DNA of 59,518 bases, the filler included, from Nitrospinae bacterium RIFCSPLOWO2_12_FULL_45_22 (GTDB lineage Bacteria; 2-12-FULL-45-22): assembly GCA_001803565.1 (NCBI GenBank). It is 6 parts of 6 records of this genome, joined end to end, with 100 filler letters (N's around TTAATTAATTAA, not from the genome) between each part and the next. Parts side by side here need not be neighbours in the genome. Positions count along the whole stretch, not along the records: positions 1 to 13,633 come from MHDQ01000085.1; 5 more parts are not named here. The stretch is one strand, 5' to 3'. Under the pieces are notes generated by a model. That model worked only from the letters and a program-made list of their open reading frames with translations, had not been told where the DNA came from and did no database searches. Made by a program: the position numbers and the translations under genes. Positions 1-21,035 of the stretch are shown in pieces (position 1 is the stretch's first letter; each line of letters opens with the position of its first letter).

Positions 1-2
1 AT

Positions 3-377
3 CTGATAGCTGCCAGCATGGGTTCTGAGCTGGAAATGGTTAGTATCCCATTTGATCTGGCCCGCCCCAGCCGACCTTATACGGGGAGGAGTCACCATGA
101 AGTGCTGGATATCAACAAAATCCAAACACAATTGGGATATAAGGATATAGTAGACTGCGAGGAAGCCATACGCAGAACTGTTTCATGGTATCTTACCAAC
201 CGCCCCGAGCCAGGCGGAGAAGTGGAAAGGCAATTGGGAGATTCCTTTGATTACGATATTGAAGATAGGGTCATTCAAGAGTATCGAGACTTTTTGGCGC
301 CGGCACGGGAGCGGGTGGCAACAGGGTTTAAATATCGCCATCCTTACCCACATCCCAAAACGCAAGAAAATAAATAG
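3..377 (+). CDS. C-terminal part of an NAD-dependent epimerase/dehydratase (extended SDR); starts before the window
   Basis: Frame is open from position 3; LDINKIQTQLGY...EEAIRRTVSWY resembles the extended-SDR C-terminus. Confidence 0.55.
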   Translation: MIAASMGSELEMVSIPFDLARPSRPYTGRSHHEVLDINKIQTQLGYKDIVDCEEAIRRTVSWYLTNRPEPGGEVERQLGDSFDYDIEDRVIQEYRDFLAPARERVATGFKYRHPYPHPKTQENK

Positions 378-410
378 AATAAACCCTCATGCCCCTTGGG
401 ATATGAGGGT

Positions 411-800
411 TTATTTTGAATCCTCAACACAGGAAACGATATCCTGAATCCTGGTGCCGGGGGTAAAGACTTCTCTTACCCCCATGCCTTTTATAAGGGA
501 TATCATACTGGGAGGAATAATGCCTCCTACGATGACTTTAATATCGGGGACTCCTCTCTCCTTTAATAGGCTCATTAATCGGCCCACAAGGATATCTGGC
601 GCACCATCCATGATGCGATAGCCTATGAAGTCTACATCTTCCTCTACAGCAGTATCTACAATCTCCCGCGGTATTTGATACCCTCCAAGGACTACCTCTA
701 TCCCGGCTTCCTGTAATCCCTTGGCCACTACATAATACCCTGTGGAGTGTCCTAAAGAATCCATAACGAGAAGCACGCGTATCTTCTTCTGGTTACTCAA
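411..800 (-). CDS. Cobalamin-binding small subunit of an acyl-CoA mutase (IcmB/MCM C-terminal-like), divergent
   Basis: GHSTG...AGIEVV...EEDVDFIG...VIVGGIIP...GVREVFTPG follows the B12-binding Rossmann domain pattern; AGGAGGAG RBS; directly downstream of the large subunit. Confidence 0.85.
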   Translation of the reverse strand: MSNQKKIRVLLVMDSLGHSTGYYVVAKGLQEAGIEVVLGGYQIPREIVDTAVEEDVDFIGYRIMDGAPDILVGRLMSLLKERGVPDIKVIVGGIIPPSMISLIKGMGVREVFTPGTRIQDIVSCVEDSK

Positions 801-858
801 TCGGCTCCTCCCTTTAGCTAGTTAAATAGACCCTTGAATCTAACCGATTATATTCTGC

Positions 859-2526
859 TTACATGCCAAAGAACTTACCACCGAACCGGGACAGATCCAA
901 AGACCCAAAGACTTCCTTTCTGATCTGAACGATCTCTCCGATGCTCAAATATGCCTTTACGGCCTCTATCATAGGTTCAATGATGTTTACCCGGCTCCGG
1001 TATGCCTGAGCCAACATCTTTTTGGCTGCTTCTACTTTCTTTGGGTCTCTTTCTCGCTTAACCTTTTCCAGCCGGGCAATCTGACGGTCCCGCCAGCCCG
1101 GATCGTACTCCTGCAATTTTACGCTATGTGCAGGGACAGATTCTTCCTCTTCCATGACAAATCTATTCACCCCTACTAACACCCTTTCCCCATTATCAAT
1201 AGCCCGTTGCCGCTGATATCCGGCCTCATCCGCTTCTTCCTCCATATATCTAAAGGCCCTTTCTGGACTCAAACGGTTAAGGTAGTCCAAAATCTCCCTG
1301 GCCTGTTCCTCCAATTGATTTGTCAGAGTCTCTACGCAATAAGACCCACCCAGGGGGTCTAAAACCTTTGCTATCCCTGTTTCATAGAAGATAATCTGCT
1401 GCGTCCGAATGGAAAGGGTAGCGGAAGCCTCGGTAGGTATGGCCAACGCCTCATCGAAAGAGTTAACGGAGAGGGATTGCGCCCCACCGAGAATCGCAGC
1501 CAGCGCATGGATAGTGGAACGAATAAGGTTATTATAGGGCTGTTGAGCGGTCAAGTTTAGGGCTGTAGTCTGGACATGAAACCGCATTAGCCAGGACCTG
1601 GGGTCCTTAGCCCCCATATCTTCCCGCATGAGTCGAGCCCACACTCTCCGCATGGCTCGATATTTCGCCACCTCTTCTAAAAATTCGTTCTCTGCGCTCA
1701 GGAAGAAAGAGACTCGTGGAGCAACCTCGTCCACTCCTAATCCACGGGCCATTGCTGACTTTATTGTATAAAGCCCAAGATAAAGTCCAAAGGCAATCTC
1801 CTGCAGAGCAGATACCCCTTGATCTCGAATATTCCTGACTGAGATGCTCGTATGATTCCATAAAGGAAGGTTCTTAGAACAGTACTCAATAATATCAATC
1901 GTGCCGTTCCCTTCGAACCGCGGTCCTTCTCCGCCAGGAATTACGCAATTCTGAATGGTACCCCGCAACTTTGCCAGCTCTATCTTTCTGCGCTGGGCTT
2001 CAGCCAGGATCATAGCAAAAACCGGGATGGAGCAGCCAATCTGGTTGATACTAATCTTCTCCATATCAATACCCGCAAAGAGGGTCTCAATATCAGCCAG
2101 GGAATCAATCCATACTCCTCCACGGCCCAGCATCCCCAGGGAACGTTCATCACTAGACTCATAGGGATCATACCCCATACCACAGACACTAAAGCCGGTC
2201 TGCCCTTGTTCAAACAGGTGTTTTAATCGCTCATTGGTCTCTTCAGCCGTCCCTATCCCCACTACTTGTCTAATAGTCCACTCTTTAGTCTGGTAACCGG
2301 TTGGTGTTACTCCCTGGGTAAAGGGATATACTCCTGGAAAACCAATATCTTTCAAATAATCAACCTTAGTTATATCCAGAGGGGTATAAACCATTTTCAA
2401 TGGAATACCGGAAACAGTTGTTTCTTCTAACTCCTTTTCGCCATATTTTTTGAGGATATGCTCTATCAGTCTTTCATACTCCTTCTTTGCCTGCTCAATC
2501 TCTGCCAGGACTTCTTCGTTAAACAC
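859..2526 (-). CDS. AdoCbl-dependent acyl-CoA mutase large (substrate-binding) subunit, divergent
   Basis: SGIPLKMVY, PGVYPFTQG, WTIRQ, GTIQN, EEVAKYRAMRR, RFHVQT, LTAQQPYNN, GGAQSLSVNSFDEA, DPLGGSYCVE, LVGVNRF. Confidence 0.92.
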   Translation of the reverse strand: MFNEEVLAEIEQAKKEYERLIEHILKKYGEKELEETTVSGIPLKMVYTPLDITKVDYLKDIGFPGVYPFTQGVTPTGYQTKEWTIRQVVGIGTAEETNERLKHLFEQGQTGFSVCGMGYDPYESSDERSLGMLGRGGVWIDSLADIETLFAGIDMEKISINQIGCSIPVFAMILAEAQRRKIELAKLRGTIQNCVIPGGEGPRFEGNGTIDIIEYCSKNLPLWNHTSISVRNIRDQGVSALQEIAFGLYLGLYTIKSAMARGLGVDEVAPRVSFFLSAENEFLEEVAKYRAMRRVWARLMREDMGAKDPRSWLMRFHVQTTALNLTAQQPYNNLIRSTIHALAAILGGAQSLSVNSFDEALAIPTEASATLSIRTQQIIFYETGIAKVLDPLGGSYCVETLTNQLEEQAREILDYLNRLSPERAFRYMEEEADEAGYQRQRAIDNGERVLVGVNRFVMEEEESVPAHSVKLQEYDPGWRDRQIARLEKVKRERDPKKVEAAKKMLAQAYRSRVNIIEPMIEAVKAYLSIGEIVQIRKEVFGSLDLSRFGGKFFGM

Positions 2527-2640
2527 CGCTTACCCTCCTTATTCATCTTTATCCAATCGGGCTTATATCAAGAAATATGTGGATGCATCTTGAGAAATTA
2601 AAGGTCAACTGCAGCTATTCGCGAAAAGGTTACCAGAGTA

Positions 2641-5136
2641 TTATATTATTCCCTTAGTTTTCAATCCAGCCATTTCCTCAACGCTATATCCCAGAACTTC
2701 AGTATAAATTTCGTGGTTATGCTGTCCGAGTATCGGGGCACCCTTTATAATATACTCGGGCATCGAAGAAAATCTGGGAAAGACGCCCTGGACTTTCACA
2801 GGACCCATTACCGGGTCTTCAACCTCAATAATTGCTCTTCGGGCTTTATAGTGGGGGTCGTTAAAAATGTCCTTAACATTATTAATGGGACTAACAGGAA
2901 CTCCGGCATTAACCATTATTTCTACCACCTCGTCCAGATTATAACCCCCAACCCATTCTGCTATAAGAGCATGGAGCATATCGGCATTTTCTACCCTACC
3001 TTTCATGTCCTGATACTGAGGATCATTGGGTAAGTCTTCTCTTCCAATAACCCGGGAAAGCCTTTCGAAGAACTTATCGGTAGGGGCCTCAATAGCTACC
3101 CAGCATCCATCCTTGGTTTTAAAATGCCCTGCAGGGGCAATATTCATATAGTGGCTTCCGTTGCGGGACCTTATAATACCAAGCTTATCATACGCTACCA
3201 CGGTATATTCCAGAAGGCGAAATATAGACTCATAAAGGGAGATATCAACCCATTGCCCCGTTCCTGTTTCCTCTACATCTCTATAGTAAAGGGCAATCAT
3301 AGTAGCAAGGGCATTGGTTATCGCGGTTATATAATCGCCCAGGATCAAACCCGGCCGTATAGGTGGGGCATCAGGCTCGCCAGTCAGATATACAAAACCC
3401 CCTGCCCCTAAACCGACTATATCATACCCGGGTTTATATCTATAGGGACCGGTCTCACCAAAGGTTGTAACCCGGATCAAGATTATCCGGGGATTGATCT
3501 TCTGTAGTTCATCATAGCCAAGGTTCCACTTTTCTAATACCCCAGCACGAAAATCTGTTAATACGATATCTGATATTTTCACCAGACGCTTTACCATCTC
3601 TTGGCCTTCTTTGGACTTCAAATTCAAAGTGATGGATTTTTTACCCCGACCTTCCACCGTCCAAAAAAAACCAGAATCTTTATAGAATGGCCCTACATTA
3701 CGCAAGAGCATTTTCTTGCCCGTAGGCTCTTCGATCTTTATTACCTCGGCACCAAATTCCCCTAATATTGTGGTTCCTATAGGACCCGCGCCGGATGAGC
3801 CGAGGTCCAAAATCCTTATCCCTTCCAATGGCCGTCTTAATCCATTTTCTCCTTTGCCGAGCTCCTTATCTTTACTTATTACCCCTTTATTCGTTCCATT
3901 AGAAACTCTTTTATTATCTTTGGGGATAGGGAAGGGAATCACTATTTGTTCCCGAAAAAGGGTTTCTATCTGCTCTGGGCTATAACCTAAAAGGTCGCAG
4001 AATATTTCCTGATTATGACAACCTAAAGGTGGGCCGCTCCATCTCACTCGGCCTGGTGTTAAGGAGAAGTGGGGGCTTATCCCCTGCATCTTTGCCTTCC
4101 CGATATCTGGGTCTTCCACTTCAATAATATTCCCCCGGGCAATATAGTGGGCGTCAGAGAAGATATTGTCTATAGAATAAATAGGACCGACAGGGACTTC
4201 ATTTTCCTCCATAATACTGAGGACTTCGGCTAAGAGATGATCCTTTACCCAATCCCTTAGAATGTTATTAATGGCATCAGTATTTTTGCACCGCGACTCA
4301 TTATCTTTGAACCTGTCATCCACTATAAGCTCTTCCCGCCCTATTGCCTTAGCTAGCCTGGCAAAGATGTGGTCTATAGGCGCTCCTAGAAAAACCCAAT
4401 TCCCATCGCTGGTCTCAAAGGTATCTATAGGAGCAACGAATAAAAAGCGATTACCGGTCCGTTCTTTGACTAATCCCAGCTTATCGAAAAGAGGGACATT
4501 GTTTTCATATAGCCGAAACAGTGCCTCATACATCGCAACATCTATCCATTGTCCCATTCCGGTTTTTTTTCGATGATAGATGGCCAAAAGGGTTGCCAGG
4601 CCATTGAACAATCCCGCAATGTAAGCACCGGCACTCACGCCTGTCCTCAATGGGGCACCACCTTCATAGCCAGTAAGATATGAGAGGCCACTCATAGCCG
4701 AAGCTACCATATCATATCCTGGACGATCTCTATATGGTCCATCTTGGCCAAAGGCAGATACCGACACCAGAATTATCTTGGGATTAATCCTTTTAAGCTC
4801 CTCATATCCTAATTTCCAGGCATCTAAGGTGCCCGGCCGGAAGCTCTCTACCACTACATCAACGACGGCTACCAGGTCTCTGATGATGTTTTGTCCTGCG
4901 CTTTTACTTATATCTATGGTTATAGATTTTTTATTCCTCCCATCCACTACCCACCATAACGATTTGTCTTTATAGAAAGGTGGCAAATTCCTCAATATAT
5001 CGCCTTTTTGTGGCTGTTCAACTTTAATAACTTCTGCCCCGAAATCAGCTAAGATAGTGGGTCCAAAGCCACCTGCCAGCCCATTCCCCATTTCTAAGAC
5101 CCTTAATCCTGCTAAAGGTAATTTATTTGCCGTCAT
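2641..5136 (-). CDS. Tandem two-domain class III (CaiB/BaiF) CoA-transferase
   Basis: Two complete repeats of PL.G.R.L...GAEVIK.E...K(K)SIT...FG..GPY...PGYD; 831 aa. Confidence 0.92.
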   Translation of the reverse strand: MTANKLPLAGLRVLEMGNGLAGGFGPTILADFGAEVIKVEQPQKGDILRNLPPFYKDKSLWWVVDGRNKKSITIDISKSAGQNIIRDLVAVVDVVVESFRPGTLDAWKLGYEELKRINPKIILVSVSAFGQDGPYRDRPGYDMVASAMSGLSYLTGYEGGAPLRTGVSAGAYIAGLFNGLATLLAIYHRKKTGMGQWIDVAMYEALFRLYENNVPLFDKLGLVKERTGNRFLFVAPIDTFETSDGNWVFLGAPIDHIFARLAKAIGREELIVDDRFKDNESRCKNTDAINNILRDWVKDHLLAEVLSIMEENEVPVGPIYSIDNIFSDAHYIARGNIIEVEDPDIGKAKMQGISPHFSLTPGRVRWSGPPLGCHNQEIFCDLLGYSPEQIETLFREQIVIPFPIPKDNKRVSNGTNKGVISKDKELGKGENGLRRPLEGIRILDLGSSGAGPIGTTILGEFGAEVIKIEEPTGKKMLLRNVGPFYKDSGFFWTVEGRGKKSITLNLKSKEGQEMVKRLVKISDIVLTDFRAGVLEKWNLGYDELQKINPRIILIRVTTFGETGPYRYKPGYDIVGLGAGGFVYLTGEPDAPPIRPGLILGDYITAITNALATMIALYYRDVEETGTGQWVDISLYESIFRLLEYTVVAYDKLGIIRSRNGSHYMNIAPAGHFKTKDGCWVAIEAPTDKFFERLSRVIGREDLPNDPQYQDMKGRVENADMLHALIAEWVGGYNLDEVVEIMVNAGVPVSPINNVKDIFNDPHYKARRAIIEVEDPVMGPVKVQGVFPRFSSMPEYIIKGAPILGQHNHEIYTEVLGYSVEEMAGLKTKGII

Positions 5137-5316
5137 CTTATGGGCCTCCTCTTTTTAATAGCCAAATCAAGGTTATAAATGTTATAGATGAAAAAATCGC
5201 CAGATATGCGCAGGCAACAAGAAGATGAGGCGTATTATGTGGGCTATCAGGACTTGCCTGGATCAGGGAAGCTCAGCATCAGTTAGTCGCTAGAATTCTG
5301 AACCAATTCAGGCAGA

Positions 5317-5345
5317 AGAATAGTGTAATTCTTTTGGCCTGTCAA
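5317..5345 (-). promoter_or_regulatory. Candidate sigma70 promoter for the CoA-transferase/mutase operon
   Basis: Minus strand TTGACA-17 nt-TATTCT. Confidence 0.55.
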
Positions 5346-5493
5346 CAAATTTTTCTCTTGATATTTCCCAAAAATTTCAGAAAAATAGGACACCTTCTAT
5401 TTTCCCATTAATTTGTTGGCTAACAAAAATTTGAGTAGAAGGTGATGAAGAGATAAAGTGAATAGTCGGAACAATTTTGCGGGAGGGAGCTAA

Positions 5494-6657
5494 ATGACTG
5501 CTTATTTACAGGATATAAGGGTTATAGATTTCTCTATCATGTTACCCGGGCCTTATTGTAGTATGCTCTTAGGGGATCTAGGTGCCGAGGTAATAAAGAT
5601 TGAGCAACCACCGGACGGAGACCCTGCCAGGATAATGATCCCGGGTTATTTCGAAAGTCTGAACCGGAATAAAAAGAGCCTGACTTTGGATCTCAAATCC
5701 GTACCGGGTAAGGAGATATTCTGTCAGCTTATTCGCTCGGCCGATATTCTTTTGGAAGGATTCCGGGGTGGGGTACTTAAACGACTCGGCTTTGGTTATG
5801 ATCAACTGCTCCAGATAAACCCCAGGATAGTCTTTTGCTCTATAGCCGGTTATGGTCAGGATAGTCCTTGGGCGAGCAGACCCGGGCATGATATCAACTA
5901 CCAGGGGGTAGCAGGGGTATTAAGTCTGAGTGGGGCACCTGATGGCCCGCCAGATTATACCATCGGAGTAGCCGCAGCAGACCTTACTGCTAGCTTATTT
6001 GCCCTCTCTTCTATTATAGCGGCCCTGTTTCATAGAGAAAAGACCGGGAAGGGCAATTGCATTGAAGTAGCTATCGCGGATGTAGCAGTATCCTTGATGT
6101 CTAACCGGATAGGAGAATTTTTTGCCCGAGGAAAACCATCTAAGAGCCAGCAGATGGGTAGGGCTGCTGCTGGGGTCTTTGAGACTAAAGATGGTAAATA
6201 TATCACGCTGGCGGCTGCGGAAGAACATTTCTGGAAGAGGTTATGTCAGGTTCTTGATCTAAAGGAGCTGAGCCAGGACCAAAGATTCTCTTCCACCCTG
6301 AATAGGAGTAAGTATCGCAAAGAGATCAATGAGCGTTTAGCAGAAGTATTTCGGACCCGGGAACAAAAGGAATGGTCAAATATATTAGAAAAGGCCGATT
6401 TACCGTGGGGGCCGGTAAACACCATCGAAGACCTCCCCAATGACCCGTATATCTCGTCTCGGCAATTAGTCCTCCCTCAAGAACACCCTTCATTGGGGAA
6501 TATATGGCAGGTCGCCTTCCCGGTAAAATTCCTCTCGGAACAACCTGAGATTAAACACCCGGCCCCCTCTTTAGGGCAACATAACCGGGAAATCCTGAAT
6601 TCATTAGGATACAGAGATGAAGATATGGCAATCTTTAAAGAGGAAAAAATTATTTAG
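5494..6657 (+). CDS. Class III (CaiB/BaiF) CoA-transferase
   Basis: LPGPYC...LGAEVIKIE, NRNKKSL, GHDINY, AADL (catalytic Asp retained). Confidence 0.92.
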   Translation: MTAYLQDIRVIDFSIMLPGPYCSMLLGDLGAEVIKIEQPPDGDPARIMIPGYFESLNRNKKSLTLDLKSVPGKEIFCQLIRSADILLEGFRGGVLKRLGFGYDQLLQINPRIVFCSIAGYGQDSPWASRPGHDINYQGVAGVLSLSGAPDGPPDYTIGVAAADLTASLFALSSIIAALFHREKTGKGNCIEVAIADVAVSLMSNRIGEFFARGKPSKSQQMGRAAAGVFETKDGKYITLAAAEEHFWKRLCQVLDLKELSQDQRFSSTLNRSKYRKEINERLAEVFRTREQKEWSNILEKADLPWGPVNTIEDLPNDPYISSRQLVLPQEHPSLGNIWQVAFPVKFLSEQPEIKHPAPSLGQHNREILNSLGYRDEDMAIFKEEKII

Positions 6658-6687
6658 AGCGAGCAATAATTGCTTTTTTATCTTTAC

Positions 6688-7785
6688 CTAAGCCTCTGCA
6701 TCGACATAGCATGCCAGGCCCCTATCCAAAAACCGGAGACATTTATTGCAGGATATACAAGTTACCGGATCCTCCTGACCTTGCTCGATCTTGTTTACTA
6801 GATCGGGTTCCCGAATAAAAGGTCGGCATAATGATATAAAGTCAGCCTTTTTTTGTTGCAGTATTTCTTCCATGAGGGCTGGTGTCCGCATGCCGCCCAC
6901 AAGGATCAGAGGACAACGGATTTCAGATTTTATTTCTGGTGCGTATGGCAAGAAATACGCCTCCTGTTCTCTGCTCTTAATACCAGGGACGAGACATTTC
7001 CAGATAGATAATTCCAGTGTCCCACCGCTGATCTCAATGGCATCCATTCCGAGGTCAGATAGCAATCTGGCTGTCTTTCTTGTCTCTTCAAGGGTAAGAC
7101 CGCCTTCCACATAGTCATCTATATTCATCTTGATAAATAACGGATAATCCTGCCCTGCTACTTGCCTGATCCGTTTGTATACTTCGGTCACTAACCGCTG
7201 GCGGTTCTCAAAACTCCCGCCCCACTGATCGGTTCTCCGATTGGAATAGGGGGATAAGAACTGACTGATCAGGTAGCCATGAGCACCATGGAGCTGGACG
7301 CCATCGAATCCTGCCTCTCTTGCCCTTCGGGCGGCTTCTCCGAAAGCCTCTATAAGCTCCCATATCTGCTCATCCGTCATCTCTCTGGGGGTAATCCCGG
7401 TCCTTTTATAAGCGATAGGTGACGGTGCAATGGGTGGAAAATCTTGGGCACTATCGGCTTGCATCTGGCGGCCACAATGGAAAATTTGAGGAACTATTTT
7501 TGCTCCATAATTATGGGCCTGCTTGATAAGCCTCTGCCATCCGGGTATCATCTCATCCTTATGCAGACCAGGCATTTTGTAGCCTGAACGTCCACTCTCG
7601 TGCACAAAGGCCACTCCAGTAACAATCAGACCCACACCCCCTTTGGCTAATTCCGTATAGCGCGATACCAGGGCATCGGTTACCTGCCCATCGGCAGCGG
7701 CCAAGCTCTCGCCCGTTGCAGACCGCACAAAACGATTCTTTATCTCCATATTGCCTATCTTTCCTGGGGTAAATAATAGCTTCAT
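6688..7785 (-). CDS. NADH:flavin oxidoreductase (Old Yellow Enzyme family)
   Basis: KNRFVRSAT, GFDGVQLHGAHGYLISQFLSP, C-terminal CISCNKC. Confidence 0.92.
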   Translation of the reverse strand: MKLLFTPGKIGNMEIKNRFVRSATGESLAAADGQVTDALVSRYTELAKGGVGLIVTGVAFVHESGRSGYKMPGLHKDEMIPGWQRLIKQAHNYGAKIVPQIFHCGRQMQADSAQDFPPIAPSPIAYKRTGITPREMTDEQIWELIEAFGEAARRAREAGFDGVQLHGAHGYLISQFLSPYSNRRTDQWGGSFENRQRLVTEVYKRIRQVAGQDYPLFIKMNIDDYVEGGLTLEETRKTARLLSDLGMDAIEISGGTLELSIWKCLVPGIKSREQEAYFLPYAPEIKSEIRCPLILVGGMRTPALMEEILQQKKADFISLCRPFIREPDLVNKIEQGQEDPVTCISCNKCLRFLDRGLACYVDAEA

Positions 7786-8212
7786 CTTCCTCCCCTCCTA
7801 CGAAATCCATTTTAACCTGAATCCAGAGCGAATCGTCGGGCCTACAATAATTTAGCAGAACTGGTCTATTATTCGGTATTAAGTTAATCAATTTTTTAGG
7901 ATTGTCTTATCCCAGCTAAAGCCCAGAGTTACAGCTTGCTCATCTAACCCCTTTCAGATTGATCAATTCCTAAGCCTTGGGTCATAAGACCTGTCTTGAA
8001 TAAGTCTGACATCAGAATTTTGAACTTTAATACCTGGCTTTGGTGTTTTCGTACCCCTAGAAGCAAATAGGGTTTACCCGGACGAACAAATACTTATGTG
8101 GAATGGGCTAAGCCCATTTGATGATCAAAAAGAAGCGATAATAATGCGGTGTTAGAAGCGGTACGTAAATTTTTCAGTAATGATAAAGTCATGAGCCTTA
8201 GTCCATACAGTA

Positions 8213-9346
8213 TTAGAATGGCCTTGCCCAGAGGATGCCTCCAGAGTCGTTTAGTAATTTCTTTAGTGCCTCTCCAGAGCTATTCACGCGATATATAAAA
8301 TGCTTGTCTTTTTCCCTAGAGATAAAAATTATCCCCTCTCCATTCTTTAACCACTCCGGATAGGCGCACCCTTCCACCTTTTGGGCAATTTTAACCGTGC
8401 TTTTGTCTTTAAGATTTAATATAGATAACCTCTGATTTCTCGAAGATATGAACACTATCCTATTTCCATTGGGAGACCAGGAAATCTGATTCCTTATCAC
8501 TCCTTTTTGCAATAACCTTGGCTTGGGCATTCCGGTTTCTGACAAATTCAGGAGATATAGGTCATCTTCCCCCTTTTCCTTATTGAATCGATACAAACAG
8601 ACTTTTTTTCCATCAGGAGACCAAGATCCTCCACTCTCGTAAAGGAAAGGGTCCGTCCCTAATCTCCTCCTTCTTCCATCTTTTAGGCTGATTAGATATA
8701 TCTCTTTCTTGGCACCCAAAATGGAGATGATATTATCAGTTTTGGGAGAGACTAGAATGAATGGTGAATCAACGCCATCGATCCTCTTCGCATTTTCATT
8801 GCCTATTTTTACCTCATATCTCTTAACCACATTTGACCACTCGGCTGGGCCTACCATAATGGTGTCATGATTTTTCTTCACCAAATACCATGATGGAGTA
8901 GGATAACTAAAAGGAATAAATACTCCGGTGCTATCCCACGACCACGGTATAGCTTTAGATAATATATGGACATTTACATAATGGTCTTTGGAGACCATGC
9001 TTTGGTTAGTGGTTAACAATTCCTGCTGACCTGTTCCATCGATATTTAAAATGTATACTGTGTCAGGAGGGGAGCCCACATACGCTATCTCTTTCTTATC
9101 TGGTGATATAGAAACTAATATCTCTTGAAAGGAATTATATGTTATCCTTTTAAGATTATCTCCGTATATATCTACTGTATACAACTCTACATCACTTTGA
9201 TCCACTACGCCGTCTCTATTCACATCTTCTCCGCGTAAAGAGGCAAATAGAATCCTTTCTTTTTTGGGCTCCCCTCCTCTTCCGGGCGAAGCTACTATAA
9301 ATAGAGTAAAGAATAGGTTTAAAAATAAAGTCAAACGCCACAACAT
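8213..9346 (-). CDS. Secreted TolB-like beta-propeller protein (PD40 repeats)
   Basis: N-terminal signal peptide; repeated SPDKKEIAY / WSPDGKKV / WSPNGNRIVF / WLKNGEGIIF. Confidence 0.75.
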   Translation of the reverse strand: MLWRLTLFLNLFFTLFIVASPGRGGEPKKERILFASLRGEDVNRDGVVDQSDVELYTVDIYGDNLKRITYNSFQEILVSISPDKKEIAYVGSPPDTVYILNIDGTGQQELLTTNQSMVSKDHYVNVHILSKAIPWSWDSTGVFIPFSYPTPSWYLVKKNHDTIMVGPAEWSNVVKRYEVKIGNENAKRIDGVDSPFILVSPKTDNIISILGAKKEIYLISLKDGRRRRLGTDPFLYESGGSWSPDGKKVCLYRFNKEKGEDDLYLLNLSETGMPKPRLLQKGVIRNQISWSPNGNRIVFISSRNQRLSILNLKDKSTVKIAQKVEGCAYPEWLKNGEGIIFISREKDKHFIYRVNSSGEALKKLLNDSGGILWARPF

Positions 9347-9368
9347 CTTTTAAACCAGCTATTTTCGG

Positions 9369-10061
9369 TTATTCTTCAATTATCTTGAATTCGACTCTTC
9401 GGTTTAGCATTCTTCCTTCGCTTGTTTCATTGTCTGCAACCGGATTTTCCTCACCGAATCCTTTCGTCATCAGCCTATTCTCTTCTATATCCTCAGTTAT
9501 CAGATAATTTTTTATACTCTCTGTCCTCCGCTCTGAAAGTTTTTGATTATATGTATCTGGCCCAATCCAGCATGCATGCCCTTCTATAGATAACTCAACA
9601 CTAGGATTATCCTTTAAATAATCCACAACTTCCTTAAGTATCGGCATGGATTCAGGTTTTATAGTGCTTTTATCAAAATCAAATTGGATATTTTGGAAAA
9701 CCATCCTCTTGGGTGGTGCTGGAGGGGGAGGTGGTGAAGGTGGAGCTTCTTCTACCTTGGGTGGAAGTGGCGAAGGTGGAGCTTCTTCTACTTCAGGAGG
9801 TGGCGGAGGTGCCTCCTCTGCTGTCATTATCCCTATAATGCCTCCAACTATACCACCGATTACTGCACCAATCCCCGCCCCGATCGCGGCTTCTTCCCTT
9901 TCTCTATCACTTGGTGCTGCCGCAGCGCCTATGCCTGCACCGATAACACTTCCAGATGCCGCACCTATCAAAGCACCCTTCTGCCACTTTTTCATCCCAG
10001 CACAACCATGTGTAATTAACGCAAGAGATATTAAAAAAACGAATAATTTGCCCTTTTTCAT
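9369..10061 (-). CDS. OmpA-family lipoprotein with glycine zipper and Pro-rich linker
   Basis: Lipobox THGC, GALIGAASG/AAIGAGIGA zipper, IQFDFDKS...IEGHA...NQKLSERR...NRRVE; AAAGGAGG RBS before ATG 10061. Confidence 0.88.
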   Translation of the reverse strand: MKKGKLFVFLISLALITHGCAGMKKWQKGALIGAASGSVIGAGIGAAAAPSDREREEAAIGAGIGAVIGGIVGGIIGIMTAEEAPPPPPEVEEAPPSPLPPKVEEAPPSPPPPPAPPKRMVFQNIQFDFDKSTIKPESMPILKEVVDYLKDNPSVELSIEGHACWIGPDTYNQKLSERRTESIKNYLITEDIEENRLMTKGFGEENPVADNETSEGRMLNRRVEFKIIEE

Positions 10062-10333
10062 TTTATAGCCTCCTTTCATTTTCGGGATAATTTTACACCC
10101 CCCAAATATGAGCTTTATCCTGGAATGATACGCGCATTATGCCCCAACTTTCAAGCTATTCTATCGTCATGGGGGGGGGGACGGGGAAGCAAACTGGGAA
10201 ATCCTTTAACGACCCATTTAGGGAGGAGAGATTGCCTGAATATTCTCATCCGAAACCTCCTTTTTGTCGGATTAGAAAACCCTGCGTGTTTATGGGCAAG
10301 TATATTATAATTTTTTTGCGGATGCAATATTTT

Positions 10334-10485
10334 GGTTCTTTCTCATTTCAAATGGGTAAACCGACTTTGCTGTAGTCCAATTTACCTGTAAGCATATAGA
10401 TTATTGTTTTAAGATTCTTGAATGTTCTATAGCCCCTTGCTTTCGCCTTCGCGGCCTGCACCAAACTATTAAGTCCTTCCAATAT
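10334..10485 (-). mobile_element. ISL3-family remnant: transposase C-terminus plus right end
   Basis: Minus-strand translation ILEGLNSLVQAAKAKARGYRTFKNLKTIIYMLTGKLDYSKVGLPI* (stop 10348-10350) followed by ...GAGAAAGAACC terminus; not in the ORF track. Confidence 0.8.
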
Positions 10486-10500
10486 TATATATTATTTTAT

Positions 10501-10647
10501 TGCTTACTGACTTAGCTGACCCAAAATATCTTTAACGCTTTAATTTATAAGGCTTTTTTGCGATATCCATTGAGAAAATCTAAAAGCAAAATTTCCCTTT
10601 TAAGATAAGCGGTTAAGCCCATATTAGGTCAGCTAAGTCAATAAGCA
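10501..10647. mobile_element. MITE-like element, 147 bp, 21-bp terminal inverted repeats
   Basis: TGCTTACTGACTTAGCTGACC (10501-10521) vs GGTCAGCTAAGTCAATAAGCA (10627-10647): 20/21 complementary; AT-rich non-coding interior. Confidence 0.6.
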
Positions 10648-10669
10648 GTTATTTTTTATTAATTATTAT

Positions 10670-10923
10670 TAAGGTGGACCCCTTTGTCAAGACAATTTTT
10701 TAAGATATTTAAGTTACACTTTGGGGTCTAAAGTTATTCATTTCGGAAGAGAGGAATGACGTCTTTTTTCTCTTCCTGGTCATGCCGCTCTTTGATTGCA
10801 TCTAATGCAACCTTTGCTTTAAATGATGGCGGATAACTCTTTCTCATTTTTTCCCCTTGGCCCTCCTGTTTCTGATCTCCAAGTGTAACTTATCACGTTG
10901 TCCAAATTTTGGGGTCCATTATA
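10670..10923 (-). mobile_element. Internally deleted IS3-family element (both ends plus start of orfA)
   Basis: Left end TATAATGGACCCCAAAATTTGGACA and right end (reverse complement) TAAGGTGGACCCCTTTGTCAAGACA; orfA stub MRKSYPPSFKAKVALDAIKE from 10847. Confidence 0.75.
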
Positions 10924-11264
10924 AGTTTTTTAAATTGGGTGTAGGAGCTATTAATTACTGTTGGAGAAATCGAGTACTGGATAAACATAAATACGGCGAG
11001 TGCAATAAGCCCGCAACTAATCAATAATGATACTTTTTTCCATGAAGCTCACTTCTAGGCGGGTTCCGGGGATATTGGACAGTCATTCTCTCTGAGTTGA
11101 GCATATCAGAATCGGGAATAGCTAATTACTTCTTCTGGCTCGATAAATAGAAATTTCGTGTCAAAGTTAGGGAAAAAGGTTGCCATCTTCCTTATCGCTA
11201 TGTTAATCTTTCTTAAACAAAAAAGAAATTCCTTATCATCTAAACATATTTTAATCAGATTAAG

Positions 11265-13388
11265 TTGTGCAAGAAAGAAGGGATTGTAGTGAAGTGGAAA
11301 TGGGTTTTAGGAGTTGTTTCCGCCGCGATTGTGTTACTGGTTGTGGCAGTTTACGTGATCCTGTTAAGATACAATTATAATGGCCTCAAGCCGGAAATCA
11401 CACGAGCAGTCAAGGATGACACGGGGCGAGAGTTAACCTTAGGGGGTGACATAAGCCTCAAAATAGGCTTTACACCGGCGCTTGTTGTTGAGGATGTGAT
11501 CTTCCAGAACGCACCCTGGGGGTCGCAGCCCGAGCTGGCGAAGATCAAACGCTTCGAGATAAAAGTGAGGCTTTTCCCACTTCTTTATCGCCGAATCGAG
11601 GTCAAACGGTTGATCTTGATTGAGCCTAAGATCCTGTTTGAAACGGACATCTCAGGCAAGTCAAACCTCGCATTCGAAACTACGAAGAAACAAGACCTCA
11701 CTAAAGGAAAAGACGAGACGAAGGTCGGGGGCGATTGGAACCTGGCGGCACTCACTTTCAACGAACTGCAGATAGAGAAGGGCCGTATCACCTACATAGA
11801 TCATGGATTGAAAAAAACTTATGTAGCGACAGTGGGCACCCTCATGGCAACCGCTACAAGTAGCGAAAGTCCGACCAAGCTGAATCTAAAGGGAGCATAT
11901 AACGACGGACCTTTCGAAGTCAGGGGGAATTTGTGCCCCTTGACAGCCTTCATCAACCCTATCAAAGTTTGGCCGGTCAATCTTGCGGTCAAGACAGAGA
12001 GTGCCACCCTCACCCTTGATGGTACGGTTAAGGATCCACTGGCCCGGCATGGTATCGAATTAAATTTCACGCTGAAGGGTAAGGACTTGGCAAGCTTCAA
12101 ACAACTTTCCGGTGAGGCGTTACATCTCAAGGGACCATTCGATATCTCTGGTCGAATTGCTGATACTGCCCGTAATGCCTATTCGATTTCTAACCTCAAG
12201 ATCATGCAAGGCGAAAACGATCTCAGTGGGAGGGTTGAGTTGAATTTTGCTGAAAATCGGCCGAAGGTGACAGCAGTGCTATCGGCACAGAAATTGGACC
12301 TTCGACCCTATTTTCAGGTGGGTCCGAACATAGAGAAGGCGCCAAAGAATTCAAGCAAAAGGGCTGGAAAGGGAGACAAAATCTTTCCTGATCATCCTCT
12401 GCCCCTGGATACCCTAAGGCAGGCCGATGCAGATGTTAAGATCCAAGCTGCTCAAGTCCTGCTGCCGAATCTTCCTCTCAACGGCCTTGACATGGACACG
12501 GTCCTCAAGAATGGAGCGCTTACAGTGAAGCCCTTCAAGGCAGTTGTTGGAAAAGGTTCCATGGATGGCCACCTTTCTCTCCAATCTCAGGGGAAGGTTG
12601 CATCGCTGACAATCGTCTTGAAAATCAATAAGCTTGACATTAGCTATTTGACGAAAGAGCTTAAGAGTACCAAGGGCCTCGAAGGAAATCTTGATGTAGA
12701 CATTGACATCAGAGCCCGGGGTGCCTCAATAGCAGGATTCATGGGAGACCTTAATGGTAAGACGGTTTTGGTGATGGGCAAGGGAAGGGTCGTCAACAAG
12801 TATATCGACATACTCGGTGGTGATCTCAGCGCCAGTCTCTTTCGTCTCCTCAATCCATTTCGGGAGGAGAAGCCATACACTTCAATTAATTGCTTTGTCA
12901 GCGGTTTCAATATAAAAGATGGGGTAGCAAGCACGACTGCACTCGCATTGAACACGGATTACATGGTTGTGGTTGGCGAGGGCGAGATCAATCTGAAGAC
13001 AGAAAGACTTAACCTATCCCTCAAGCCTGTTCCGAAGGAAGGTATTGAGACCCGAGTTACGGGCAAGTTAAATGTAAGTTTAAGCGAGTTAACGAGACCT
13101 TTCAAACTGGGCGGCACGCTTGCTCATCCCTCACTCGCTGTTGATCCGACCCAAACTGCAATTGCCTTCGGCAAGGCGATTGAAGGAGTAGTGCTATTTG
13201 GGCCGATCGGTATTGCCGCAGCACTGGTTGGTAGCAGTTCGGGTGACGAAAACTCTTGCCTTGCAGCCATTGAGGCCGCAAATAAAGGGGTTAGGGTCAA
13301 CAAAGGCCTTGTTGGTAAGGTCACGGAGGGCGCCAAAGATGTCCTTAAGGGCGCCGGCAAGGAATTCAAGAAGCTGTTCGGCAAATAA
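11265..13388 (+). CDS. AsmA family protein
   Basis: N-terminal TM anchor, LKPEITRAVKDDTGRELTLGGDI, NAPWGSQP; C-terminal INCFV...GEINLKTERL...LGGTLAHP. Confidence 0.85.
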   Translation: MCKKEGIVVKWKWVLGVVSAAIVLLVVAVYVILLRYNYNGLKPEITRAVKDDTGRELTLGGDISLKIGFTPALVVEDVIFQNAPWGSQPELAKIKRFEIKVRLFPLLYRRIEVKRLILIEPKILFETDISGKSNLAFETTKKQDLTKGKDETKVGGDWNLAALTFNELQIEKGRITYIDHGLKKTYVATVGTLMATATSSESPTKLNLKGAYNDGPFEVRGNLCPLTAFINPIKVWPVNLAVKTESATLTLDGTVKDPLARHGIELNFTLKGKDLASFKQLSGEALHLKGPFDISGRIADTARNAYSISNLKIMQGENDLSGRVELNFAENRPKVTAVLSAQKLDLRPYFQVGPNIEKAPKNSSKRAGKGDKIFPDHPLPLDTLRQADADVKIQAAQVLLPNLPLNGLDMDTVLKNGALTVKPFKAVVGKGSMDGHLSLQSQGKVASLTIVLKINKLDISYLTKELKSTKGLEGNLDVDIDIRARGASIAGFMGDLNGKTVLVMGKGRVVNKYIDILGGDLSASLFRLLNPFREEKPYTSINCFVSGFNIKDGVASTTALALNTDYMVVVGEGEINLKTERLNLSLKPVPKEGIETRVTGKLNVSLSELTRPFKLGGTLAHPSLAVDPTQTAIAFGKAIEGVVLFGPIGIAAALVGSSSGDENSCLAAIEAANKGVRVNKGLVGKVTEGAKDVLKGAGKEFKKLFGK

Positions 13389-13532
13389 ATTATAGGCTTA
13401 GCAGGTTTTTAAGCAGCCTCTTAGTGGACAAGCGGGGGGCAACGGACAGGCGGGTTTGGGGCATTAAAATATCTTTCCGGCGCTGTCAGAATTCATACCA
13501 GAGATCCTTAATAACCTTGAATAGAAGATTGA

Positions 13533-13631
13533 TCATAACCAATGGCCAAACAAATTTATGAACCATTCCTTAACACGATCAGTGAATGGCCGTTTCTTCC
13601 ACTCTTCTAAATGGATCTGATTGGACTCCCT
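13533..13631 (-). CDS. Extreme C-terminus of a probable cardiolipin synthase, truncated by the contig end
   Basis: Minus-strand RESNQIHLEEWKKRPFTDRVKEWFINLFGHWL* resembles the Cls C-terminal W..RP...R..E motif. Confidence 0.55.
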   Translation of the reverse strand, partial: RESNQIHLEEWKKRPFTDRVKEWFINLFGHWL

Positions 13632-13633
13632 GA

Positions 13634-14315: not shown

Positions 14316-14665
14316 GATTCAGGGCCGATTGCGAGGACTCTGTGTGCTGGGGGGAGGGAGCTATCGGTCAAGGAGGCATTGCTTACGCCTGAGGCTGTGT
14401 AGCTTGGGAAGCGGGGTGCTCCCGGGGCAGGGGTGAGCCCGCCGCAGCCTTGTCGGTTATGTGTGGCTTGCTCCACCACCTGCTCATCCGTGGCGGCTCA
14501 CCGAGCCAGGTCAACAATCTCCTTGGCGAGGCCAATGCCTCAGTGATACATCGGCCGCCCTGGCTTCCCCAAGGGTTCATTGTAACCCAGTGGTTGACTG
14601 GGAGTATTCGAATTTGACTACAGAGGCCTTTTAGAAATAGGGACTAATTTTCCCGGCCCTCTGTT

Positions 14666-15146
14666 GAGAGGGTTTCAGGGAAGGGTTTTCCTCTCATTTG
14701 TCGAATTAGTGCAGATGAATTCGTGGACGGGGGTAACCCTGACTGAAACTAGAGAGATAGCGGCCCTACTTATGGAGAAAGGGGTGGATATTATCAGTGT
14801 CTCTGGAGGGGTGGCCGAATCCAGGCCTCGCCGGGATGAGGCTATGAAACAGGGCAGGTTCTTGGAGCTGGCTAAAGGGATTAAAGAAGTGGTGCAGATA
14901 CCGGTCATAGCCGTAGGTAAGATCATGAGTTTAGAGCAAGCTGAAAGGGTCTTAGAGGAGGGCAGGGCTGACCTAGTGGCTATTTGCCGGGCCTTAATTG
15001 CTGATCCAGAATTAATTACCAAAACCCTGGAAAATAGGGTGGAAGAGATCAGGAAATGTATCGAATGCGGTGAATGCGTAGCTACCCTGATGAAAGACGA
15101 TATGCGGATGCGCTGTTCAGTGAATAAAGAGTGGGGGCGATTTTAG
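14666..15146 (+). pseudogene. 5'-truncated, frameshifted OYE-family flavin oxidoreductase
   Basis: GKGFPLICRISADEFVDGG in one frame, shift at the G-run near 14730 into VTLTETREIA...IPVIAVGKI...RALIADP...CIECGEC. Confidence 0.75.
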
Positions 15147-15191
15147 TTTTCCCACATAATTTGAGGTTATTAGAGGAAGGAGGGACTAATC

Positions 15192-16379
15192 ATGCCAGCT
15201 AAATTGGAAAAACTCTTTGAGCCCATAAAGATAAAAAATTTGCCCATTGAGAATCGTATTTGCTATGCCCCTACAGGCAAGGCCCATTGTACAGAAGATG
15301 GTCATCAGGTAACTGATCAAGCAATCTGCTATTATGTAGCCCGGGCAAAAGGTGGGACTGGCTTGTTGATAGTGGAGGCATGCATAGCGCTGCCCAAATA
15401 TGCCTGGCTAGGAAGAATATTGGGCTGCTGGGATGATAGTCAATTGGCTGGCCTAAGGAATTTAGCTGAGGCAATCCATGCAGCCGGGGCTAAGGCAGTG
15501 GTGCAAGTAACTTTAGGCTTAGGCAGTCAGGCTATGTTCCCTATTAAGGGAGAGGTAGTTGCCCCGTCAGATGTCCCTTCCCGTATTGGTAAAGGGACAG
15601 CTCCCAGAGGGTTAGGGTTTATGGATGGGGTTGTGGGGACTACTCCTAGACCATTGACCAAGGAGGAGATAGTAGAATTAGAAGATGCCTATGTGGCTGG
15701 GGCAGAGAGGATAAAGAAGGCGGGTTTTGATGGTATAGAGGTTCATGGCTGCCACGGCTATCTCATCGCTGAATTCATCTCCCCTTATAGTAATAAGCGC
15801 CAGGATGAATATGGTGGTTCTTTTGAAAATAGATTAAGATTAGCAAAAAACCTCTTACACAAGACCCGAGAGAAAGTTGGGGCTGATTTCATTATCGGGT
15901 TTAGGATGAGTGGTGATGAGCATATCGAGGGAGGGTATAACATAGAAGAGGGTCAAAGAATTGCCAAGGAATTAGAAAAGGCGGGGGTAGATTATATCCA
16001 TATGTCTTCTGGCCGATATGAGGTATGGAACCGGATGTTTCCAGATGAAGAGGGGACTATGCTGGATGATACCAAGGCTATAAAGCAGGCCGTAGGTATA
16101 CCGGTAATATGCCCTAATATCCATAATCCGTTAACGGGCGAAAAGGCCCTCCAAAAAGGGATAGTCGATATGATATCCCTCTCGCGGGGCTTGATCGCTG
16201 ACCCGGCATGGGCTAATAAGGCACGGGCAGGTAAATTAGAGGAAATAAGGCGATGTATCCTGTGCAATACTTGTCTTAAGACTGTATTCGGTGGTTTCAG
16301 TATCCGCTGCGCAGTTAACCCAGAAGTTGGCTGGGAGAGGTTCATTCCGGAATACTTTCCACCCATCAAAGGCAGGTAA
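15192..16379 (+). CDS. NADH:flavin oxidoreductase (OYE family) with Fe-S motif
   Basis: ARAKGGTGL, GFDGIEVHGCHGYL, CILCNTC...CAVNP. Confidence 0.92.
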   Translation: MPAKLEKLFEPIKIKNLPIENRICYAPTGKAHCTEDGHQVTDQAICYYVARAKGGTGLLIVEACIALPKYAWLGRILGCWDDSQLAGLRNLAEAIHAAGAKAVVQVTLGLGSQAMFPIKGEVVAPSDVPSRIGKGTAPRGLGFMDGVVGTTPRPLTKEEIVELEDAYVAGAERIKKAGFDGIEVHGCHGYLIAEFISPYSNKRQDEYGGSFENRLRLAKNLLHKTREKVGADFIIGFRMSGDEHIEGGYNIEEGQRIAKELEKAGVDYIHMSSGRYEVWNRMFPDEEGTMLDDTKAIKQAVGIPVICPNIHNPLTGEKALQKGIVDMISLSRGLIADPAWANKARAGKLEEIRRCILCNTCLKTVFGGFSIRCAVNPEVGWERFIPEYFPPIKGR

Positions 16380-16461
16380 TTCTTTTCGAGGGGGATAGAG
16401 GGACGTCCCATCAATTCTTTGGGGTTTTTGTAAGGGGCTCAACTCCCATTCATTGTATTAT

Positions 16462-16525
16462 GTAGCGGAGACCTTTAGGTCTCCAAAAGTGGAAGGCACC
16501 CAAAGGGTACCCGGCCTTCCGCTAC
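16462..16525. repeat. GTAG-type REP-like palindromic element
   Basis: GTAGCGGAGACCTTTAGGTCTCC ... TTCCGCTAC inverted ends; related CTCCGCTAC at about 52396-52404 and GTAGTGGTCGAGCTTGCTCGAC at about 26360. Confidence 0.5.
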
Positions 16526-16572
16526 TATTGTTAATGGGTTTCTGACAGAAAATAGCCACACCCGAGAAAAAT

Positions 16573-17986: not shown

Positions 17987-18074
17987 TATCACATTAAAAG
18001 TAATACTTTCCTTATATGCAACCCTTATGCTATGATATGCAGAAACCTAATCGTAGAGCAAGGAGGGTACAACT

Positions 18075-20087: not shown

Positions 20088-20091
20088 TCTT

Positions 20092-20916: not shown

Positions 20917-20983
20917 CTACGGTTCTGCTTTAGTATCCATATTAGACCTTGCTGTGGGTGGGAGTTCCTCCAACTCTGCGTCT

Positions 20984-21035
20984 GGTGAAATTTTGAAAAG
21001 GATGATACTTGGTTTTAGAAATTTTTGGGGAAACT
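20984..21035 (+). repeat. 52-bp dispersed repeat, copy 1
   Basis: 50/52 identical to 23839-23890. Confidence 0.85.

Follow-up and report, generated by a model that had tools for sequence, protein, structure and literature searches.

The mutase genes and their surroundings

The stretch of DNA analysed here, hereafter the window, comprises 59,518 nucleotides of Nitrospinae bacterium RIFCSPLOWO2_12_FULL_45_22 and strings together, with runs of N in between, six contigs from a single genome bin (C85, C86, C87, C89, C90 and C91), the bin as a whole amounting to 3.67 Mb in 321 contigs at 85% completeness. Our subject is a pair of minus-strand genes on the first contig, encoding the large, substrate-binding TIM-barrel subunit (859..2526, 555 aa) and the small B12-binding subunit (411..800, 129 aa) of a predicted acyl-CoA mutase. 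We put the chances at slightly better than even that this pair constitutes a working two-subunit adenosylcobalamin (AdoCbl) acyl-CoA mutase of a distinct specificity class, here termed the Arg-Asn type, with a carboxylated compound as its most likely substrate. Because the window is made of joined contigs, neighbours of the mutase were counted only within positions 1-13633 (C85), and elsewhere gene context is valid within each piece.

The open-reading frame (ORF) of the large subunit, identified through PF01642, TIGR00641 and structure alignments, is open over all 555 aa and starts with a GTG codon, six bases 5′ of which lies the putative ribosome-binding site AAGGAGGG. The small-subunit gene starts 58 nt downstream and is recognized by PF02310, by TIGR00640 (102.7 bits, with a cut-off of 57.45) and by alignment to 2yxb_A and 4r3u_C. 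A palindromic hairpin read in the sequence at 382..412, with a terminator-like site listed at 393-409, separates this gene from a convergent upstream ORF (3-377) and is likely to act as a two-way terminator closing the operon. In a promoter and terminator scan of the locus such sites were no commoner than in shuffled sequence, and an Rfam search of the contig returned no family and no cobalamin riboswitch, including in the 357-nt spacer described below.

Upstream of the mutase by 114 nt, and on the same strand, lies a gene for a tandem-fused family III CoA-transferase of 831 aa (2641..5136, minus strand), in which Pfam detects two CoA_transf_3 domains in two stretches. Its position makes it a probable operon partner of the mutase, one that would supply or recycle the CoA ester. 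All its NCBIfam matches fall under the equivalog cut-offs; the nearest solved relative of the N half is the succinate-hydroxymethylglutarate CoA-transferase SUGCT (9br7_A, 228 bits), and that of the C half is 4ed9_A (206 bits), followed by a benzylsuccinate CoA-transferase subunit (9fn0_B, 172 bits). Each half retains the PGYD motif, and the fused chain may represent a single-chain form of the usual interlocked dimer. A single-domain family III CoA-transferase of 387 aa (5494..6657, plus strand; PF02515, E 4.6e-115, no equivalog cut-off reached) diverges from the mutase operon across the 357-nt spacer, and is adjoined by an old yellow enzyme (OYE) type flavin oxidoreductase of 365 aa (6688..7785, minus strand; PF00724), whose functional tie to the mutase is uncertain.

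Rebuilt active site and altered cobalamin motifs

The large subunit proved to be a full-length member of the mutase family, as the initial annotation had proposed. It matches PF01642 with 493.7 bits (E 7.5e-148), residues 36-541 spanning profile positions 1-512 of 512, and the subfamily domain model TIGR00641 with 473.1 bits, the cut-off being 303.8. By sequence, its best solved relatives are 2-hydroxyisobutyryl-CoA mutase (HCM; 4r3u_A, 380 bits, E 1.7e-112) and human methylmalonyl-CoA mutase (MCM; 2xij_A, 322 bits), followed by Propionibacterium MCM (269 bits) and IcmF (149 bits). An AlphaFold2 (AF2) model of the large subunit, based on 25 clade sequences (mean pLDDT 74, pTM 0.80), again retrieves 4r3u_A as its best Foldseek match (E 2.9e-35, TM 0.78, 39% identity), with MCM chains following.

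All the strings on which the initial annotation had drawn, namely WTIRQVVG (containing Val88), GQTGFSVCGMGYD, GTIQNCVIPGGEGPRF, SISVRNIRDQG, NSFDEA and HVQT, are present in the translation. Alignment to the solved structures places Val88 under the Ile of HCM (RQIAG) and the Tyr of human MCM (RQYAG), that is, at the Tyr89 position of MCM, and Cys115 under the first Asp of the HCM string STDFD, which corresponds to Asp117 once an 11-residue tag offset in the PDB entry is allowed for. The loop after Cys115 is shorter by 4-5 residues than in the solved structures, and the loop after GTIQN, which in MCM bears VRNTY with Arg207, is shorter by some 7-8 residues. Arg231-Asn232 fall under Tyr243-His244 of the SGYH motif, so that the general acid His244 is absent. 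We take Tyr89, Arg207, Tyr243 and His244 of MCM, together with Ile90 and Asp117 of HCM, to be functional active-site or specificity positions. The proposal that the substrate pocket had been rebuilt is thus borne out by Val88, the two shortened loops and the Arg-Asn pair, in the structure alignment as well as in all 122 homologues analysed below. Its premise that Tyr243 and His244 are normally conserved is valid for the characterized MCM, isobutyryl-CoA mutase (ICM) and HCM enzymes, which share SGYH, but not for the wider family, where these positions are highly variable: only two of the genome’s other mutase paralogues carry GYH, and among the 150 best cluster representatives the residues there often differ from this pair.

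Outside the pocket, the MCM motifs that face the cofactor are kept. PFTxG, WTxRQ and APRxSFF, presumably the CoA contacts, line up with MCM and HCM, and the large subunit retains His317, Gln319, Thr320, Asn355, Phe357, Asp358 and Glu359 at positions that we take to be AdoCbl contacts in MCM, where HxQT and NxxDE would face the adenosyl and corrin moieties. The idea that the cofactor-binding framework had been preserved therefore stands for the large subunit, with its HxQT and NxFDE motifs, but fails for the small subunit, which throughout the clade lacks the DxHxxG Asp and the SxL Ser. We assume for the residues of these two motifs their usual roles in binding cobalt and the cobamide. In alignments with 2yxb_A and with 4r3u_C, the small subunit of HCM, the protein encoded by 411-800 reads DS-LGHSTGY for GLDGHDRGA and GYRIMDGA for GVSILNGA, retaining the GG of the canonical DxHxxG...SxL...GG motif. 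His17 aligns with the His of DGHDRG, and this His is kept in 34/34 partner subunits. The residue two positions before it is Leu here and is Asp in none of the 34 partners; an Asp occurs instead four positions before the His, together with a one-residue deletion, and the Ser of SxL is replaced by Arg (YRIMD) in every partner. The altered motifs recur in 27/27 metagenomic and 6/6 genomic partners, while four small subunits from other mutase pairs in the same loci, and those of Xanthobacter, are canonical or nearly so. Since the motifs are altered in both subunits across the clade, the two subunits have changed together. The assignment of 411-800 as the partner is likewise upheld, a small-subunit gene lying directly downstream of the mutase in 41/52 related loci, including 17/18 well-flanked ones, and in 6/6 genomic cases.

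Conservation, distribution and relation to known mutases

To delimit the clade, the best 120 homologues of each of two queries (the window protein and a member 68% identical to it) were taken from a collection of 5.8 billion proteins. The two lists share 118 entries, the second contributing two new ones, for a total of 122 homologues at 55-100% identity. The near-identity of the lists suggests that the clade probably does not extend much beyond some 120-130 clusters at 90% identity. All 122 homologues carry RQV[VMIL]G, the shortened loop S[VL][CTA]G[ML]GY, [VAT]R[ND]xR[DE]xG and HxQT, and none carries GYH; the variants in the Tyr243 region are VRN (95), ARN (23), ARD (3) and TRN (1). Among 25 diverse members, Val88, Arg231, Asn232, His317, Gln319, Thr320, Asn355, Phe357, Asp358 and Glu359 are invariant (25/25). 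The initial annotation had allowed that this copy might simply be decaying if close homologues retained Tyr and His. None of the 122 does, and the intact 555-aa ORF together with the universally conserved signature rules out decay or a pseudogene and speaks for selection on these residues.

An exhaustive search of 1.84 billion representatives clustered at 50% identity yielded 16,939 matches for the family, among which the clade forms one full-length cluster (865 bits), the next relative beyond it scoring 474 bits at 46% identity. A FastTree tree built quickly from 158 rows, whose support values are local ones, recovered the 14 clade rows as monophyletic (support 100, branch length 0.24); labelled rows for ethylmalonyl-CoA mutase (ECM) and IaaG are not part of it. 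Two representatives that also carry Arg at the Tyr243 position (MRN and SRC) are sisters to the clade. The prospect that the protein might cluster within a characterized mutase group is contradicted for the types represented, the clade lying outside the MCM-type (RQY...GYH), ICM-type (RQF) and HCM-type (RQI) rows and being unlike the gene of the pivalyl-CoA mutase (PCM) type. A relative at 49% identity in genome G007 (locus L092, C76:2058-3698) combines VRN and RQVCG with a full-length VVFDHPT loop, from which it follows that the Arg-Asn pair predates the loop deletions. Its small subunit is near-canonical (GLDALHDRGYY, ISLLSG), and a first look at G007 turned up 28 mutase candidates.

Most clade members are unnamed. 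The 12 entries that bear an organism name all derive from metagenome-assembled genomes (MAGs), assigned to Thermodesulfobacteriota, Pseudomonadota, Spirochaetota, Rokubacteria, Methylomirabilia, NC10, Deltaproteobacteria and Binatia. No clade member was found among 72,556 plasmid records, the best identity in the 432 matching records being 42.9%, and a search of the ESM Atlas returned generic mutase clusters only. In a sample of 401 genomes from the phylum of genome G061, 11 (G147, G181, G214, G245, G275, G305, G333, G386, G410, G434 and G458) encode a clade member at 66-69% identity. A first look at these 11 genomes gave 15-33 mutase candidates in each, against 0-10 in the others listed, which suggests a lineage-specific expansion of B12 mutases. 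Full-text searches, limited to the literature library used here, yielded no description of a mutase with these residues; PMC2847961 contains no residue data and PMC11599936 nothing on natural clades.

The bin analysed here itself harbours about a dozen MM_CoA_mutase paralogues (on C220, C136, C207, C134, C318, C286 with two copies, C265, C309 and C300). They include MCM-like (C136; RQY/ARGTY/GYH), ICM-like (C220; RQF/AQK/GYH) and PCM-like (C134; RMLVG, GTSNQSD, GQH) copies, and several others read GVN, GYE, GAA, GYN, GVL or GFI at the Tyr243/His244 positions.

To our knowledge, the established acyl-CoA mutase specificities amount to a handful: MCM, ICM/IcmF, ECM, HCM/RCM, PCM and IaaGH. The closest solved relative, by sequence and by fold, is the HCM of Aquincola tertiaricarbonis (HcmAB, 4R3U), which is likewise encoded by two genes, for a large subunit of ~560 aa and a small B12 subunit of ~135 aa, and which also keeps HxQT and NxxDEA. 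HCM nonetheless differs in having Ile and Asp where Val and Cys occur here, full-length rather than shortened loops, SGYH rather than SVRN, and a small subunit with canonical DGHDRG and SLL. Its operons contain MeaB-like and ligase genes, neither of which is found at the window locus; a single MeaB chaperone gene is present elsewhere in this genome, on contig C153. The HCM-type genes on plasmids of Methylibium petroleiphilum PM1 and Xanthobacter share RQIAG, STDFD, full loops and SGYH. With MCM (human 2XIJ, P. shermanii 1REQ) the enzyme has in common the family, the fold (322 and 269 bits, TM 0.72-0.74) and, by homology, the radical 1,2-shift of a CoA thioester. It falls short of the MCM equivalog NF006944 (390.5 bits, cut-off 876), and it departs from MCM in the change of Tyr89 to Val, the deletion of the Arg207 loop, the replacement of Tyr243-His244 by Arg-Asn and the encoding of its subunits as separate rather than fused chains.

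Xaut_5043/5044 of Xanthobacter autotrophicus Py2, which we take to be the characterized pivalyl-CoA mutase, resembles the pair studied here in its separate subunits, its non-aromatic residue at the Tyr89 position, the loss of Tyr243 (GQH) and a nearby TetR regulator, also found in the high-GC clade loci described below. Its large subunit is only 35% identical (300 bits), however, and has Leu (RQLIG) instead of Val, a retained His244 and long loops of different sequence, among them GTSNQSD, its small subunit carrying canonical DGHDRG. IcmF (4XC6) belongs to the same superfamily, with residues 182-541 aligning at 148.6 bits, but it is a fusion with a G-protein domain and its equivalog NF045497 gives 190 bits with a cut-off of 1500. 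The ICM-type signature seen in paralogue C220 (RQF...AQKxW...GYH) differs by Phe in place of Val and by a Gln-bearing loop that is deleted here. According to PMC8360864, IaaL is a family III CoA-transferase that moves CoA within and between dicarboxylates alongside the mutase IaaGH, the two handling phenylsuccinyl-CoA and benzylmalonyl-CoA in the anaerobic degradation of indoleacetate by Aromatoleum aromaticum. The gene logic of a family III transferase beside a B12 mutase recurs at 859-6657. Neither an iaa-like operon nor an IaaF dehydrogenase of the GGG type adjoins any clade member examined.

Gene neighbourhoods, substrate and alternative readings

We used tblastn to compare gene neighbourhoods, up to 6 kb from the mutase, in 52 related metagenomic loci whose identity across residues 83-243 is 59-77%. 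Eighteen of these loci are well flanked (at least 2.5 kb on both sides), many are short and many interrelated; the counts are descriptive and not statistical. The only constant neighbour is the partner small subunit (41/52 loci, 17/18 well flanked). One type of acyl-CoA dehydrogenase and a TetR regulator each occur in 12 loci (5/18 well flanked), a further mutase large subunit in 11 (6/18), an enoyl-CoA hydratase in eight (3/18), an AMP-forming ligase in seven (4/18), a family III CoA-transferase in six (5/18) and TRAP (tripartite ATP-independent periplasmic) transporter protein DctM in four (1/18), while OYE is found in none of the 52 or of the 18. In a high-GC group TetR and the acyl-CoA dehydrogenase come first, then the mutase, in some loci separated from its small subunit by a second, nested mutase pair; after the small subunit come enoyl-CoA hydratase, one more mutase pair and a family III CoA-transferase, in this order. 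One such arrangement (L119:3835-15359) lines up four mutase pairs consecutively, amid TetR, a dehydrogenase of the isovaleryl-CoA dehydrogenase (IVD) type, enoyl-CoA hydratase and family III CoA-transferase. Two loci (L129 and L130) carry, just upstream, a carboxyltransferase and a biotin carboxylase with the BT domain of the methylcrotonyl-CoA carboxylase (MCC) alpha subunit. A second mutase type, likewise unassigned, recurs beside the Arg-Asn type at L129:7378-9030, L128:8141-10240, L119:12752-14401 and L097:13565-15223; it keeps Tyr89 and ARGTW, reads GAH for GYH, contains AAWDEA or CPYDEA and lacks HxQT (FGNVC or FASGG).

Six of the 11 loci from the sampled phylum were annotated (L188-L193). 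In L188 three DctP genes, DctQ and DctM lie directly upstream, while the downstream side encodes Usp, an FCD-GntR regulator, enoyl-CoA hydratase, a pair of MmgE/PrpD proteins, a ligase and a further mutase; L189 has DctQM upstream and, downstream, an OYE-domain reductase of 670 aa, an FAD enzyme, Usp, GntR, MmgE/PrpD and a ligase. The ligase gene of L190 lies ~6 kb upstream, and a second mutase pair follows directly; L191 and L192 have an acyl-CoA dehydrogenase and a metallo-beta-lactamase-fold protein upstream, and L193 presents the small subunit with no other informative neighbour. Overall, TRAP DctPQM genes lie directly upstream of the mutase in L094, L097-099, L188 and L189. None of 18 neighbouring proteins compared with NCBIfam reached an equivalog cut-off. 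The neighbouring dehydrogenases form two lineages, 35% identical to each other, in which the Glu of YEG is replaced (GPI in one, SAG in the other) and both of which have a Glu in helix G as in IVD. An IaaF-like, decarboxylating function was considered for them and dropped: according to PMC8360864, the YEG site reads GGG in IaaF-type dehydrogenases, which invariably occur in iaa operons, whereas the neighbours have GPI or SAG and the relocated IVD-type Glu.

These neighbourhoods indicate two themes, one of carboxylates and the other of branched neutral acyl-CoAs, and so do not single out the charged or bulky substrate that the initial annotation had derived from the Arg at the Tyr243 position. 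Di- or tricarboxylic acids are what TRAP DctP binding proteins, FCD-GntR regulators, MmgE/PrpD proteins and family III CoA-transferases typically deal with. A carboxylate substrate is accordingly hinted at by the CoA_transf_3 domains here and in 6/52 loci, by the TRAP genes of L094, L097-099, L188 and L189, by the FCD-GntR and MmgE/PrpD genes of L188 and L189, and by the resemblance of the halves of the fused transferase to SUGCT and benzylsuccinate CoA-transferase. IaaL with IaaGH provides a precedent for a module of family III transferase and B12 mutase. If the pair functions as an AdoCbl mutase, the small subunit would bind the cobamide base-off, with His17 as the lower ligand acting without its canonical Asp partner, and binding of the substrate in the barrel of the large subunit would trigger homolysis of the Co-C bond. 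The resulting 5′-deoxyadenosyl radical would abstract a hydrogen, the thioester carbonyl would migrate by a 1,2-shift and the hydrogen would be returned. Asn232, a hydrogen-bond donor that cannot deliver a proton, and Arg231 could take over the job of His244, Tyr243 and Arg207 around the migrating carbonyl or a substrate carboxylate. The most likely substrate would be a CoA ester with a free carboxylate, namely a C5-C7 dicarboxylyl-CoA, branched or substituted, that belongs to the succinyl, malonyl or glutaryl type and would be made by the three family III CoA-transferase domains encoded beside the mutase. For this genome in particular, we favour a carboxylated substrate delivered by the adjacent CoA-transferases, while rating its chances somewhat short of even. 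A branched dicarboxylyl-CoA would reconcile the two themes, which is speculation on our part.

Several observations weigh against an active Arg-Asn mutase with a carboxylated substrate. Catalysis is predicted from homology alone, and the loss of His244 and of the DxHxxG Asp might leave the radical chemistry altered or weakened. Confidence in the AF2 model is low around residues 62-88 and 352-380, and the model yields no pocket geometry. Arg231 might simply pair with the conserved Glu or Asp of the new PxGEG loop, Glu200 in this protein, instead of contacting the substrate. The neighbourhoods are heterogeneous, with the small subunit as their only constant element. Family III CoA-transferases are abundant in such genomes, so their presence in 5/18 well-flanked loci may be due to chance, and those of the related loci are only 26-43% identical to the ones in the window. 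The IVD-type dehydrogenases that lie beside the mutase in two lineages, one of them with an MCC-like carboxylase, would appear to fit a neutral branched substrate better. A role for Arg234 as a clade-specific substrate ligand was also considered and dropped, since Arg is common at that position in GYH-type members.

The IVD-type neighbours underlie the reading, next in rank but unlikely in our estimation, of a neutral branched acyl-CoA substrate with a tertiary or quaternary carbon, comparable to pivalyl- or isovaleryl-CoA, whose product would pass to an IVD-type dehydrogenase and an MCC-type carboxylase. The acyl-CoA dehydrogenase directly upstream, with TetR, in 12/52 loci (the high-GC subgroup) has GPI for YEG and the helix-G Glu of IVD; the second dehydrogenase (L191 and L192), 35% identical, has SAG and the same relocated Glu. 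With the upstream carboxyltransferase and MCC-alpha-BT biotin carboxylase of L129 and L130, and the enoyl-CoA hydratase that follows in 8/52 loci, these genes resemble the leucine/isovalerate-type route used after pivalyl-CoA mutase, and Val88 and Cys115 would provide a small apolar wall. An invariant Arg at the Tyr243 position would nevertheless be odd in a purely hydrophobic pocket, and the high-GC loci are interrelated, which leaves few independent cases. The window locus has dicarboxylate-type CoA-transferases and neither dehydrogenase nor carboxylase, the closest relatives (67-69% identity) stand behind TRAP carboxylate transporters, and the genome already has a PCM-like paralogue (C134). 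We regard it as very unlikely that the clade belongs to a group already assigned, such as IaaGH, ECM or the mutase that acts on (1-methylalkyl)succinyl-CoA when alkanes are degraded anaerobically. The combination of a family III CoA-transferase with a B12 mutase does match IaaL/IaaGH (PMC8360864), the C half of the fused transferase is benzylsuccinate-CoA-transferase-like, and the genome is rich in genes of the OYE and HGD-D types, as is typical where aromatics are metabolized anaerobically. Yet the 12 named clade members are all MAGs, with no cultured organism in the two best-120 lists and no member in the plasmid records; none of the annotated loci has an iaa-like gene set, and the neighbouring dehydrogenases carry GPI or SAG where PMC8360864 gives GGG for IaaF. 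A full-text search on benzylmalonyl-, phenylsuccinyl-, alkylsuccinyl- and alkylmalonyl-CoA mutases yielded PMC8360864 only.

The proteins might also not be a conventional mutase at all, representing instead a silent or regulatory paralogue comparable to the MCM beta subunit, or a B12 protein with other chemistry, which we hold to be most unlikely of all. Tyr89, Arg207, Tyr243, His244 and the Asp of the His-Asp pair, five positions that we take to be functionally important in MCM, are replaced at once; the family has inactive members, such as the MCM beta chains 1e1c_B and 6oxc_B (distant matches here), and about a dozen paralogues share the genome. The large subunit nonetheless keeps HxQT and NxFDE, unlike the beta subunits, its own partner keeps the His ligand, and the gene sits in catabolic operons with CoA-activating enzymes. 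Moreover, the replaced positions are strictly conserved in 122/122 homologues, and hence the active site appears to be in use. A more far-reaching reading, which we judge to be quite unlikely, is that of a new mechanistic class, in which the general acid His244 and the cobalt-tuning His-Asp pair would together have been traded for the Arg-Asn pair in the barrel and, in the small subunit, for an Asp at a new position and an Arg that lines the nucleotide-loop pocket, and which would perform a rearrangement not yet described. The new arrangement might adapt the enzyme to another cobamide. One conceivable reaction is the opening of quaternary or branched dicarboxylates, for instance the conversion of 2,2-dimethylsuccinyl-CoA to 3-methylglutaryl-CoA, followed by a route through an IVD-type dehydrogenase, a hydratase and a lyase, a scheme that would reconcile the carboxylate-type with the leucine-pathway-type neighbours.

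Returning to the Arg-Asn mutase with a carboxylated substrate, the clade is best regarded as a well-defined and apparently uncharacterized variant of a well-known enzyme family, not as a system of a new kind. Departures from the textbook residues are frequent in this very diverse family, occurring in many of the 150 nearest cluster representatives and in most paralogues of this genome, so an additional unassigned clade comes as no great surprise in itself. The clade is common in uncultured Thermodesulfobacteriota, Rokubacteria/NC10, Binatia and others, and it breaks two textbook features together, His244 and the DxHxxG/SxL cobalamin motif. Each earlier new mutase specificity has opened a pathway or a biocatalytic route. 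Identifying the substrate would fill a gap in the degradation of branched or carboxylated acids by subsurface and soil bacteria, and would show to what extent a mutase active site and a His-on cofactor site tolerate rebuilding. The system is directly testable because both subunit genes and the candidate CoA-transferases adjoin in the window; this readiness, together with the concerted change of catalytic pair and cobalamin motif and with the clade's breadth, recommends it as a target.

Elsewhere in the window, contig C86 contains a dense redox cluster (14664-22231) encoding three OYE-family proteins, one of them of 670 aa with a pyridine-nucleotide-disulphide domain, as well as a NifH/frxC-type ATPase, a nitroreductase, an alpha/beta hydrolase and an HGD-D type protein, a gene set that recalls anaerobic ring-reduction systems. 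Among the species genomes compared, one alone comes from the same order as this bin and the other relatives are related at the domain level only, so that the bin represents a sparsely sampled lineage.

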